A DNA stretch of 64,000 bases from Gammaproteobacteria bacterium (GTDB lineage Bacteria; Pseudomonadota; Gammaproteobacteria; QZLD01): positions 2,963 to 66,962 of the forward strand of contig JAWSVB010000014.1 of the NCBI GenBank assembly GCA_033852135.1, read 5' to 3'. Of this stretch, positions 18,505 to 52,427 are shown in pieces. The notes below the pieces were generated by a model. The model made no database searches. It was not told the origin of the DNA and saw only the letters and a program-made list of their open reading frames with translations. The position numbers and the translations under genes are program-made. Position 1 is the stretch's first letter, and each line of letters begins with the position of its first letter.

Positions 18505-19110
18505 ATGAAAAAAATAGTTATTTTAGCTTTATTGCTATCTGTAGGAACTGCTAATGCAGGAATTATTGAATTAGGTGATTTTTCTGGCTCAGAAACAGTA
18601 ATTGATTTTAATGCTATATCTAATACAGAATCTGTTGCTAACCAATATTCTATTGATGGGGTTTTATTTAGTGGTGCGTTACTGGGGATGACAAATTCTG
18701 GCGATACAGCACTATTTAATGGCAGTACAATTGCTTCAAACTGGAACTACTCAGGTGGTGGCAATACTGGGCAAAGCTGGTCTGCAACTTTTGATTCAGT
18801 TCAAAACATTTTTGGTTTTTTCTCGGAAACTAATTCTAGCGATGATGTAACTATCGAAGCCTATTTGGGGACAGCATTAATTGGTACAGTAAATTTCTTG
18901 AACCCTAATGGCACATATCCAGATTTTCTTGGCTTTGGTGACTCTGGTGGCTTTGATAGTATTACAGTTACAATTGCAAAAAATGCTAACGGTTTTTTCG
19001 CAATGGATGATTTAAGATTTGAAAGTTTAAGAATACCTGAGCCAGGTTCTCTTGCTTTGCTTTGTTTAGGGATAGCAGGTGTTGGATTTTCAAGAAAAAA
19101 AATTGCTTAA
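18505..19110 (+). CDS. PEP-CTERM sorting-domain secreted protein (exosortase substrate)
   Basis: Signal peptide and C-terminal PEPGSLALLCLGIAGVGFSRKK (PEP motif, TM helix, basic tail). Confidence 0.75.
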   Translation: MKKIVILALLLSVGTANAGIIELGDFSGSETVIDFNAISNTESVANQYSIDGVLFSGALLGMTNSGDTALFNGSTIASNWNYSGGGNTGQSWSATFDSVQNIFGFFSETNSSDDVTIEAYLGTALIGTVNFLNPNGTYPDFLGFGDSGGFDSITVTIAKNANGFFAMDDLRFESLRIPEPGSLALLCLGIAGVGFSRKKIA

Positions 19111-19129
19111 TTAAAAATTAATCTACTTA

Positions 19130-19158
19130 AAAACCTCGGTGTTATACGGGGTTTTTTT
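19130..19158 (+). terminator. rho-independent terminator after the PEP-CTERM gene
   Basis: aaaaCCTCG-gtgttata-CGGGG followed by a T7 run. Confidence 0.55.
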
Positions 19159-19205
19159 GTGCCTGATAAAAATTATACTAGGGTATAAATAGATGGAGAG
19201 TAATT

Positions 19206-23172: not shown

Positions 23173-23200
23173 TTGACACAATTATTCATCAGAGTAATAT
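23173..23200 (+). promoter_or_regulatory. sigma70-like promoter (TTGACA-N16-TAATAT) driving the rtcB leader
   Basis: Consensus -35 hexamer at 23173-23178 and a near-consensus -10 at 23195-23200. Confidence 0.4.
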
Positions 23201-23242
23201 ACGCCGAAATTTCACATCAACTCATATGTTAGGAGGTAATCA

Positions 23243-23269
23243 ATGCAAAAACAGGTAAACAAAATATAA
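23243..23269 (+). CDS. 8-codon leader ORF (MQKQVNKI) with consensus SD AGGAGG
   Basis: AGGAGGT sits 6 nt upstream of the ATG and a TAA stop follows 8 codons. Located inside the rtcB leader. Confidence 0.3.
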   Translation: MQKQVNKI

Positions 23270-23320
23270 AACCTCCCCAGAAAAAATTCTGATTGGGAGG
23301 CTCAGCCTTCTAATCACAAG

Positions 23321-23353
23321 ACCCTGATTAGCTTTGGCTGTCAGGGTTTTTTT
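23321..23353 (+). terminator. intrinsic terminator / attenuator hairpin immediately upstream of rtcB start
   Basis: ACCCTGA-N12-TCAGGGT followed by T7. It is preceded by an SD / anti-SD / anti-anti-SD triplet: AGGAGG 23231, CCTCCCC 23272, GGGAGG 23295. Confidence 0.55.
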
Positions 23354-23376
23354 ATGGGTCAGAATTAGGAATTATT

Positions 23377-24570
23377 ATGCCAGTTTATATGGAACTAAAT
23401 AAGGGGGAAGTTCCGGTAAAAATTTACACTGATGAGATTGAATCAGAAGCGATAGATCAACTTATCAAGGTATCTCAATTACCGTTCATTCACTCACATA
23501 TCGCAGCAATGCCTGATGTGCATAGCGGCAAAGGTGCGACGATAGGAAGTATTATCCCAACAAAAGGAGCGATTATACCTGCTGCTGTTGGCGTGGATAT
23601 TGGATGCGGAATGCAGGCTGTTAGGCTTAACATGAAGCGTAAATACCTGCCTAAGAAGCTTGCTAAGTTGCGTGCCTCGATCGAGGATCTTGTACCAATT
23701 GGGTTTACTATGAACCAACCGGGAAATGCGCATAAAAAAGCGTGTAAGGATCTTGATGCAAGGCTAGATGCGATAGTAAAAAAGCACCCAGAATTGATGA
23801 AGATGGTAAAAAATCTTCCGCAAACTTGGGTTTGCCAAATGGGTACCTTAGGTGGTGGTAACCACTTTATAGAGGTGTGTATTGACCAGCAAGATTCAGT
23901 TTGGATTATGCTGCATACAGGGAGTCGCGGCCTTGGTAATGCAATGGGGAGATATTTTATCTCTCTTGCCAAGCGCAATATGCCTGCGGAAGTAAATCTG
24001 CCAAATAAAGATCTAGCTTACTTTACCGAAGGGACAGAGCTTTTTGATGATTATGTTGAGACAGTTTTATGGGCTCAGGATTATGCCAAAACCAATCGAG
24101 ACGTAATTATGCAAGAGGTACTGTCAGCTGTTGATAAGAGCTCATCCTATCACCAATTAAAAAGTAGCATTATTGACTGCCATCATAACTATGTGGCGCA
24201 GGAGACCCACTTTGGTGAAAAGGTTTTTGTTACTCGTAAAGGTGCAATTCGCGCTGCTAAAGGTGAGGTTGGAATTATCCCCGGTAGCATGGGGGCAAAG
24301 TCTTTTATTGTAGAAGGGATAGGCAACGAGGATTCTTTTCAATCATGCTCCCATGGAGCAGGTAGAAAGATGAGCCGTAGTAAGGCAAAAAGGTCTTTCA
24401 CCAAAAAGGATCTTGAAGCACAAACCAAAGGTATTGAATGCCGTAAGGACAAAGATGTTTTAGATGAGATTCCAAGCGCATATAAAAATATCGATTCGGT
24501 GATGAAGAAACAAAGCGACTTGGTTGAAATCAAATACACCTTAAAGCAGGTTATTTGTATTAAAGGGTAA
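23377..24570 (+). CDS. rtcB: RNA-splicing ligase RtcB (3'-phosphate/5'-hydroxyl RNA ligase)
   Basis: Conserved RtcB motifs: DVHSGKG, GGGNHF, HNY..Q, SHGAGR; ~400 aa. Confidence 0.9.
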   Translation: MPVYMELNKGEVPVKIYTDEIESEAIDQLIKVSQLPFIHSHIAAMPDVHSGKGATIGSIIPTKGAIIPAAVGVDIGCGMQAVRLNMKRKYLPKKLAKLRASIEDLVPIGFTMNQPGNAHKKACKDLDARLDAIVKKHPELMKMVKNLPQTWVCQMGTLGGGNHFIEVCIDQQDSVWIMLHTGSRGLGNAMGRYFISLAKRNMPAEVNLPNKDLAYFTEGTELFDDYVETVLWAQDYAKTNRDVIMQEVLSAVDKSSSYHQLKSSIIDCHHNYVAQETHFGEKVFVTRKGAIRAAKGEVGIIPGSMGAKSFIVEGIGNEDSFQSCSHGAGRKMSRSKAKRSFTKKDLEAQTKGIECRKDKDVLDEIPSAYKNIDSVMKKQSDLVEIKYTLKQVICIKG

Positions 24571-24612: not shown

Positions 24613-24867
24613 ATGAAATATAGAAACCATGTAGCGCAAAACCCATTGCTTAGAAAGGGTGGGGCGCATCAAAAATCACGCAGTTCGCAGCGTTCTAGCA
24701 ACAGGCGCAAGCTTAACTCATATCTTGATGAATGGTATGAAGATGAGCATAACGAAAAAAGCGATAATAAAGGGATTAAAGAGGAGCAGGATAGCTCCTC
24801 TTTTTTTGCCATTTATTTAGCTAATTCTTCATATGATAGCTACATAAAAAATCTGCTTATTTCGTAG
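24613..24867 (+). CDS. small basic protein, possibly an ArfA-like alternative ribosome-rescue factor
   Basis: The N-terminal 35 aa (NPLLRKGGAHQKSRSSQRSSNRRK) resemble the hydrophobic-P-L-F-R-x-R plus K/R-rich core of ArfA. The call is weak. Confidence 0.25.
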   Translation: MKYRNHVAQNPLLRKGGAHQKSRSSQRSSNRRKLNSYLDEWYEDEHNEKSDNKGIKEEQDSSSFFAIYLANSSYDSYIKNLLIS

Positions 24868-52337: not shown

Positions 52338-52427
52338 TGGCGGAGAGCGAGGGATTCGAACCCTCGATAGAGTTACCCCTATACACCCTTAGCAGGGGTG
52401 CGCCTTCAGCCACTCGGCCAGCTCTCC
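52338..52427 (-). tRNA. tRNA-Ser (anticodon GCT)
   Basis: Reverse complement gives GGAGAGC...acceptor, anticodon stem-loop CACCC-CTGCTAA-GGGTG, long variable arm, T-loop GGTTCGAATCC, 3' CCA. 90 nt. Confidence 0.85.

Follow-up and report, generated by a model that had tools for sequence, protein, structure and literature searches.

A probable leader-peptide attenuator upstream of canonical rtcB in Gammaproteobacteria

Background

How bacteria switch on the RNA ligase RtcB is understood only in part. The route that has been described runs through the sigma-54 activator RtcR, by which canonical rtcB is regulated upon damage to the translation apparatus in E. coli and Salmonella. Here we describe a short leader lying directly upstream of rtcB in a 64,000-nucleotide stretch of the genome of a Gammaproteobacteria bacterium (GenBank assembly GCA_033852135.1, contig JAWSVB010000014.1, positions 2,963 to 66,962), referred to below as the window, in which all features are given on the forward (+) strand. 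The leader is probably a ribosome-mediated transcription attenuator, and no fewer than 13 lineages of Gammaproteobacteria carry it 5' of rtcB.

The closest system described so far is that of Pseudomonas aeruginosa. There, the RtcB-like gene armZ (PA5471) shares an operon with PA5470 (prfH), which encodes a release-factor homologue, and is under the control of PA5471.1, a leader of 13 codons (PMC12057347, PMC13041342, PMC3516279). In the published attenuation model, full translation of the leader results in formation of the terminator, while stalling of the ribosome results in read-through (PMC12057347, PMC13041342, PMC3516279). Inducers of armZ include ribosome-targeting antibiotics, loss of suhB and loss of the tRNA CCA-adding enzyme, the last acting through codons Q3 and F4 of PA5471.1 (PMC12057347, PMC13041342, PMC3516279). 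The start of the leader gene, taken from published primers, reads AAAGGAGGTTACATCG ATG ATT CAG TTC TCT ACC CTT TGC AGG, encoding MIQFSTLCR. A 2025 review considered the armZ leader to be apparently unique to MexXY, and our literature search found no attenuator described for canonical rtcB. The armZ precedent did not figure in a preliminary description of the window, which had been made from its sequence alone.

Results and discussion

Elements of the rtcB leader

Judged from its sequence and that of its homologues, the region between the promoter and rtcB is likely to be a ribosome-mediated (leader-peptide) transcription attenuator controlling rtcB and probably also the small open reading frame (ORF) behind it. 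It contains three parts expected of such an attenuator: an upstream ORF (uORF) with its own Shine-Dalgarno sequence (SD), a terminator between the uORF and the gene, and a mutually exclusive antiterminator that engages the 5' arm of the terminator. The preliminary description had proposed a cis-acting leader that senses translation status and allows read-through into rtcB; comparative sequence evidence now supports this proposal at each structural step.

The region opens with a sigma-70-type promoter (23173..23200), comprising a -35 hexamer TTGACA at 23173-78, a 16-nt spacer and a -10 hexamer TAATAT at 23195-200, from whose position transcription is predicted to start at approximately 23207. 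Six segments of the resulting RNA pair with their neighbours in a mutually exclusive chain (0:1, 1:2, 2:3, 3:4 and 4:5). Segment 0 (23229..23245) is the translation-initiation region of the uORF, with the SD AGGAGG at 23231-36, a 6-nt spacer and the ATG at 23243-45, and the uORF itself (23243..23269) has eight codons for MQKQVNKI (ATG CAA AAA CAG GTA AAC AAA ATA TAA, the stop codon at 23267-69). Segment 1 (CCUCCCCAGAA, 23272..23282) begins 2 nt past this stop, is anti-SD-like (CCTCCCC at 23272-78) and has segments 0 and 2 as alternative partners. Segment 2 (UUCUGAUUGGGAGGC, 23287..23301) is SD-like (GGGAGG at 23295-300) and is able to pair with segment 1, which would correspond to the read-through state, or with segment 3, which would correspond to termination.

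Segment 3 (GCCUUCUAAUCA, 23305..23316; also given as CCUUCUAAUCA) has as its partners segment 2 or, via its 3' part, segment 4. The latter pairing is the antiterminator, formed by CUAAUCA (23310-16) with UGAUUAG (23325-31) inside the terminator 5' arm; it provides the link from the SD triplet to the terminator, and was missed in the preliminary description. Segments 4 and 5 make up the intrinsic terminator (AAGACCCUGAUUAGC-UUUG-GCUGUCAGGGU followed by U7, 23318..23353), segment 4 being the 5' arm (23318-32) and segment 5 the 3' arm plus U-run (23337-53, with U7 at 23347-53); the hairpin spans 23318-23350 and has the core ACCCTGA/TCAGGGT. The loop of this hairpin exceeds 8 nt, beyond the limit of a simple terminator scan, which therefore passed it over. 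The promoter, SD, uORF, CCTCCCC and GGGAGG had all been reported at these same positions, as had the hairpin and its T7 run; only the distance to rtcB, given previously as 24 nt, needs correction, since 23 nt separate the end of U7 from the rtcB ATG at 23377.

Structure prediction assigned the 156-nt leader a folding energy of -47.4 kcal/mol, compared to -29.9 kcal/mol for shuffled sequences (z = -5.1, none of 200 shuffles being as good). At gathering score, the only match of Rfam 15 in the window was a tRNA at 52341-52427, with none in the leader; a permissive search returned for the leader only terminator look-alikes scoring 20–21 bits, against gathering scores of 39–50.

In most homologues the bases directly 3' of the terminator U-run (window 23354-23368; columns 148-154 of the MAFFT alignment A2) are conserved, reading either UAUGGG or UAUGCC. 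A four-codon mini-ORF (ATG GGT CAG AAT TAG) opens there in the window, the stop codon of which overlaps the rtcB SD, and the minimum free energy (MFE) structure has UAUGGGU base-paired to ACUCAUA (23220-26), near where the leader begins.

Conservation across gammaproteobacterial lineages

Homologous loci, designated below by L numbers, were gathered by RtcB protein look-ups in genomes, metagenomes and contigs. In 13 or more lineages rtcB is preceded by a leader of the same layout, promoter included. The shared layout consists of a TTGAC-type promoter, an SD with a uORF of 8–14 codons, a pyrimidine segment, an SD-like segment, the complement of the latter and an intrinsic terminator. Carriers include the window and its close relatives (L002, L001, L071, L140/141 and L142/143), Marinobacter (L145-147 and L160/161, including the complete genome CP071785.1), Beggiatoa alba B18LD (L148), Competibacteraceae (L149/150/154) and Fluviicoccus (L047), together with L003/144, L153, L155 and L157.

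The best promoter match has a -35 of the form TTGAC[AT] (TTGACA or TTGACT) in 10 of 14 homologous leaders, 37–111 nt 5' of the uORF. The SD and start codon of the uORF are kept in 12 of the 13 lineages, and in L155, another of the 13, the SD is weak. The peptide drifts in sequence and is little conserved, although Gln occupies codon 2 or 3 in eight of the 13 lineages. Despite this variation in peptide and in uORF length, the distance from the uORF stop codon to the pyrimidine-rich segment 1 is 0–5 nt in every lineage.

A covariance model (R1) built from 13 of the leaders recovered all of them at E values of 1e-5 to 1e-19. No leader was found with this model upstream of rtcB genes with ≤57% identity (L047 excepted), in the clade encoding 402-residue proteins (L151) or in L073. 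Locus L068 was initially counted as a member and then dropped, as it has no 1:2:3 pattern and its rtcB is truncated. All occurrences of the leader are immediately 5' of rtcB and share its orientation, with no further copy in the window or in 160 loci. A weak second R1 match in the window (19094-19161; 19.2 bits, E 0.16, 26% GC) is probably a chance match to AT-rich sequence.

In the metagenome-assembled genome (MAG) locus L071 (2700-3200), the leader is intact, with promoter, uORF (MQQSINNISKEKYI), hairpins and terminator, while rtcB has been cut to its last 62 codons by deletion of residues 1-335 and the small ORF still follows behind the leader. This looks like a natural deletion that has placed the leader in front of the small ORF.

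The persistence of the leader in L071 in spite of the loss of most of rtcB raises the question of whether the promoter-to-terminator unit of approximately 145 nt is mainly an independent, trans-acting small RNA (sRNA), possibly with a micro-peptide, whose position next to rtcB is incidental or secondary. The promoter and terminator are both strong and the fold is compact, as would suit an sRNA, and trans-acting sRNAs derived from attenuators are known, for example rnTrpL with the peptide peTrpL in Sinorhizobium. However, the confinement of the leader to positions upstream of rtcB, always in the same orientation, argues against this, as does the nature of what is conserved, namely mutually exclusive pairings and the spacing from stop codon to segment 1 rather than a single-stranded, seed-like sequence; moreover, in L071 the leader is still followed by the small ORF. 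We therefore regard a purely sRNA function as unlikely, giving it little weight, and it is not needed to explain the leader.

Alternative helices

Helices 2:3 and 4:5 were assessed on an unbiased MAFFT alignment (A2), helix 1:2 on a hand-registered core, and helices 0:1, 1:2 and 3:4 by shuffle tests on individual sequences; these took the place of the covariance-model alignment (A3), which was discarded because it shifted the 2:3 helix of the window from its register and also aligned L153 and L157 wrongly. On the MAFFT alignment, helices 2:3 and 4:5 are 93% paired with compensatory changes in nine of 16 pairs, a level of covariation reached in none of 500 shuffles, and slid registers of the two helices collapse. 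The terminator helix 4:5 accounts for nine pairs, five of which show compensatory changes.

The proposal that CCTCCCC pairs with either the uORF SD or the downstream GGGAGG is supported by comparison. The duplex energy of 1:2 exceeds that of shuffles with a Fisher p of ~5e-11 over eight lineages, and five of the six base pairs in its core are compensatory, a count that is descriptive only, the alignment being hand-registered and biased toward pairing. Complementarity between segments 0 and 1 is above that of shuffles even when the SD core is held fixed (p=0.013 in the window; Fisher p ~2e-6 over nine lineages), and it extends into the spacer and start codon in L149, L047 and L003. When nascent RNA truncated ahead of the 3' arm of the terminator was folded, the antiterminator 3:4 was present in each of the 11 homologues examined; compared to shuffles its support is modest (Fisher p ~3e-4), and its fifth pair changes from U-A to C-G in L071, L140 and L142, within the close clade.

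The folds predicted for naked RNA are, in most homologues, 0:1 with 2:3 and the terminator 4:5. The naked fold of the window itself differs, being 0:3 with 1:2 and the terminator. When 15 nt from the uORF stop were masked, in imitation of a terminating ribosome, the fold was 2:3 plus terminator; when only RNA downstream of the stop codon was folded, the nascent chain adopted 1:2 plus 3:4 in all 11 homologues. A further helix, between segment 3 and the rtcB SD, was judged by eye to be weak and not conserved, and was rejected.

The best-conserved stretch of the leader, ...CAGCCUUCU..., forms the 3' arm of hairpin 2:3. Conservation of this kind would be expected if the hairpins were a site at which a protein (e.g. 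RtcB itself or a ribosomal protein) or a small ligand chose between terminator and antiterminator, the uORF being irrelevant, and the uORF without an SD in L153 points the same way. However, loops and bulges are not conserved while the helices covary, no Rfam family matches the leader, and binding of a factor would leave unexplained why a uORF with a strong SD is present in 12 of 13 lineages with its stop codon tied to segment 1. We consider control by a bound factor very improbable.

A model for control of rtcB

Whereas the elements, their conservation and the alternative helices are established in silico, we infer the translation of the uORF, the choice between termination and read-through, and the assignment of each ribosome state to an outcome. 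In the model that we favour, the sigma-70 promoter is constitutive and the fate of the six-segment RNA depends on the ribosome. With no ribosome on the leader, 0:1 would form, followed by 2:3 and then 4:5, and transcription would end near 23350. A ribosome that proceeds through the eight codons and reaches the stop codon would cover segment 1, because this segment starts 2 nt past the stop, again leaving 2:3 and 4:5 to form and terminate transcription. If instead a ribosome stalls with its P site at approximately codons 1-3, and thus with CAA, AAA or CAG in the A site, segment 0 would be masked while segment 1 remained free to form 1:2; segment 3 would then be released to pair with segment 4, the terminator could not nucleate, and RNA polymerase would enter rtcB.

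The combination of 1:2 and 3:4 would therefore be expected to require that segment 0 be occupied while segment 1 stays free. This amounts to a trp-like logic, in which transcription would terminate both without translation and with smooth translation, and would read through upon early stalling. The signal would be general damage to translation rather than the shortage of one amino acid: such a stall could be caused by damage to the tRNAs that read the early codons (Gln, Lys, Gln) or by their not being charged, by damaged ribosomes or by ribosome-targeting antibiotics, and these are conditions in which a ligase that repairs tRNA or rRNA is plausibly useful.

Several observations weigh against this model. 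The terminator state is far more stable at equilibrium than the read-through state (-34.7 vs -19.6 kcal/mol), therefore read-through would have to be a kinetic outcome, dependent on kinetic trapping. The antiterminator of the window is weak, having 7 bp of which five are A-U (~-5 kcal/mol); single tests of 3:4 reach only p = 0.01–0.16, and column-wise covariation for this helix was abandoned because its paired positions shift and are not homologous between distant lineages. Some of the complementarity in 0:1 is to be expected in any case, since every anti-SD-like segment is able to pair with an SD. The putative uORF of L153 has no SD and that of L155 only a weak one. Lastly, the promoter hexamers by themselves are not above chance, since 13 promoter-like sites were found in the window compared to 13.7 expected from shuffles.

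Our confidence in the exact polarity of the switch is lower than in its class. A simpler polarity would have any absence of the ribosome from segment 1, including failure to initiate, lead to read-through, in which case the leader would measure overall translation capacity or the coupling of transcription to translation rather than stalls at particular early codons, and helix 0:1 would be a by-product of SD/anti-SD composition. The 1:2 plus 3:4 fold of post-stop RNA in 11 of 11 homologues is consistent with this, as is the naked nascent RNA of the window, in which the MFE pairing once segment 2 has emerged is 1:2 and not 0:1. In P. aeruginosa, moreover, armZ is expressed more strongly when the third codon of PA5471.1 is changed to amber (PMC13041342). 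Against the simpler polarity, 0:1 exceeds expectation with the SD core fixed and reaches into the spacer and start codon in three lineages, and the naked folds of most homologues contain 0:1, 2:3 and the terminator. We think the simpler polarity rather unlikely and prefer the model in which an early stall is needed for read-through.

If this model is correct, a sizeable group of Gammaproteobacteria, including Marinobacter, Beggiatoa, Competibacteraceae, Fluviicoccus and many uncultured lineages, would appear to wire canonical rtcB straight to the ribosome, such that the gene is transcribed when a ribosome stalls at the start of a tiny reading frame. The leader would then constitute a simple cis-acting reporter of translation stress.

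The ligase gene and its neighbours

The gene following the leader (SD AGGA at 23367-70, coding sequence 23377-24570, together 23367..24570; 397 residues) encodes RtcB (Pfam RtcB, 4.7e-124), with 53% identity to E. coli RtcB over 413 columns. The protein scores below the cut-offs of the models for PrfH-coupled ligases (NCBIfam PRK09588 and TIGR03073; 195.8 bits vs 407 and 163.8 vs 271.8, respectively), and by sequence it is of the canonical type, not of the RtcB2/ArmZ subfamily. A tblastn search of the window for PrfH returned nothing better than E 0.46, that is, no PrfH.

The preliminary description had reported that no rtcR or rtcA is nearby, and each approach taken here agrees. In the 64-kb window, tblastn searches with the E. 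coli RtcR and RtcA proteins gave only E > 0.1; neither the GAFTGA motif, nor an enhancer-binding protein Walker A motif, nor the sigma-54 promoter motif TGGCA-N5-TTGC occurs anywhere in it; and Pfam searches of the 10 window ORFs of suitable size detected no RtcR or RtcA. The divergent gene upstream, identified earlier as the HNH nuclease gene yajD, does encode a YajD-family HNH nuclease (149.5 bits vs a cut-off of 87).

Other elements were seen 5' of other rtcB genes. In L007, a Bryobacteraceae MAG, a tRNA-like sequence (GTAGCTCAACTGGTAGAGCA ... GGTTCGAACCCCGC) interrupted by ~100 nt lies at ~2740-2900, directly 5' of a distant rtcB, and could be an intron-containing or split tRNA adjoining the ligase gene. 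In four Myxococcales loci (L022, L030, L035 and L038), a different conserved element, ...GAAAGCCTTAC.T...CGCGGGCC.TTCGTCTG..., is located ~100 nt 5' of rtcB, which suggests another lineage-specific rtcB leader.

The small gene downstream of rtcB

In most homologous loci rtcB is followed by a small basic ORF, which in the window lies at 24613..24867, encodes 84 residues with the motif NPLLRKGGAH..K..SQR, and probably shares an operon with rtcB. At least 248 proteins, none of them named, belong to this family, whose invariant core is ..RN....KGG.H......R (also given as KGG(A/V)H..K...R). Neither Pfam nor NCBIfam nor the PDB holds a relative, and none of the ArfA chains in the PDB was matched. 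In Competibacteraceae-type loci (L149, L154 and L155) a conserved gene takes the place of the small ORF; it has ~313 residues with no recorded Pfam hit, starting MDLSEVQEIIACLPAGRTFFHYFKDRYALLLL.

The reading frame of the small ORF itself contains an intrinsic terminator (GAGGAGC-AGGAUA-GCUCCUC followed by U7, 24781..24807), and its in-frame stop codon comes 58 nt later. Such a terminator was found in eight of 12 homologous loci, with the stop codon 4–125 nt past the U-run at a position that varies freely. Transcripts ending at the 24781-24807 terminator would be without a stop codon, because the terminator precedes the in-frame stop; by analogy with known non-stop genes, the product would therefore be expected to accumulate only when transfer-messenger RNA (tmRNA) is overwhelmed. 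The earlier description of this ORF as ArfA-like thus holds for its organisation and not for its sequence: Pfam PF03889 hit none of 11 small proteins at E values up to 10, compared to 9.2e-26 for E. coli ArfA, and an hhalign comparison with E. coli ArfA gave a probability of 0.07%, with only NPLLR aligned to DPLFR. The organisation suggests, by this analogy, a function in ribosome rescue.

It is possible, and we put it forward tentatively, that leader, rtcB and small ORF together make up a self-contained module for translation damage, in which one sensor is stacked on another and the small protein is a new ribosome-rescue or ribosome-targeting partner of canonical RtcB. The first sensor would be the stall-sensing attenuator, which turns transcription on, and the second the production of a small basic protein from non-stop mRNA only once trans-translation is saturated. 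The small protein would then serve canonical RtcB much as PrfH serves RtcB2. Were this so, P. aeruginosa armZ would have inherited its leader-peptide control from RtcB repair operons, and the control would not be an invention for MexXY regulation. In any case, the analysis brings to light an uncharacterised small protein with a suggestive gene organisation.

Comparison with known systems

The rtcBA operon governed by RtcR and sigma-54 resembles the present locus in that a canonical rtcB is under a control responding to damage of the translation apparatus. There, however, the control is exerted by an activator with a CARF domain, whereas here it would act in cis through RNA and the ribosome, and the window has neither a divergent rtcR, nor a sigma-54 promoter, nor a downstream rtcA.

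The small ORF shares with arfA and brfA a hairpin or terminator inside the reading frame, and hence a predicted non-stop mRNA. The likeness is one of gene organisation only, with no detectable sequence relationship.

Attenuators of the trp type (trpL, pheL, hisL) likewise combine a uORF, overlapping alternative hairpins and an intrinsic terminator, and share the predicted behaviour of reading through only upon a stall inside the uORF, with termination both under full translation and under none. In contrast to these, the leader described here has no runs of one regulatory codon, its sensor segment lies 3' of the stop codon rather than inside the ORF, it has an extra helix that uses the uORF's own initiation region, and its target is an RNA repair enzyme instead of a gene for amino-acid biosynthesis. 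The leaders of ermC, bmrCD, vmlR and mef/mel also have a uORF and alternative structures, in several cases with a terminator, and respond to a stall as their signal. These control resistance genes, mostly in Firmicutes, and often depend on a specific arrest peptide and a drug, whereas here the leader peptide shows little conservation and the gene controlled serves RNA repair.

A further leader precedes an RtcB2-family gene in E. coli K-12 (L158, 3241-3288, 5' of ykfJ-prfH), where a 15-codon uORF, MTNPLSMTLCRPFQD, with the SD AAGGAGG lies before the RtcB2 remnant ykfJ. It has the motif TLCR in common with PA5471.1, and its last codons are located in the 5' arm of a long hairpin. This leader was not recognised by model R1.

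The closest comparison is with PA5471.1-armZ, made here on the first nine leader codons and the published model. Both systems have a constitutive promoter (predicted in our case), a strong SD (AAGGAGG in P. aeruginosa), a short leader ORF and terminators before a gene of the RtcB family. Both have a further gene behind the ligase, which in P. aeruginosa encodes the ribosome-rescue-type factor PrfH and here a small unnamed basic protein, so that the pairing of RtcB2 with PrfH is mirrored by that of canonical RtcB with the small ORF. The peptide MIQFSTLCR resembles the 13-codon peptides MQQFTQLSKEQTI of L140 (starting MQQFTQLSK) and MQQFTYVSKEQSI of L142 (starting MQQFTYVSK), with M1, Q3, F4, S/T5 and K/R9, plus S/C8, common to both and L7 to L140 only, although such peptides are too short for statistics. 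The window peptide MQKQVNKI, of eight codons rather than 13, has only the M and an early Q in common with PA5471.1.

The two systems differ in that ArmZ is of the RtcB2 type and has gained an anti-repressor role for MexZ, while the ligase of the window is a canonical RtcB, and in the distance from leader to gene, which is 23 nt here compared to a position ~250 bp upstream of armZ for PA5471.1. The principle of attenuation is already established for armZ; what is new is its extension to canonical rtcB across many Gammaproteobacteria, together with the small protein. The armZ leader may thereby be linked to a broader, and probably older, logic of RNA repair.

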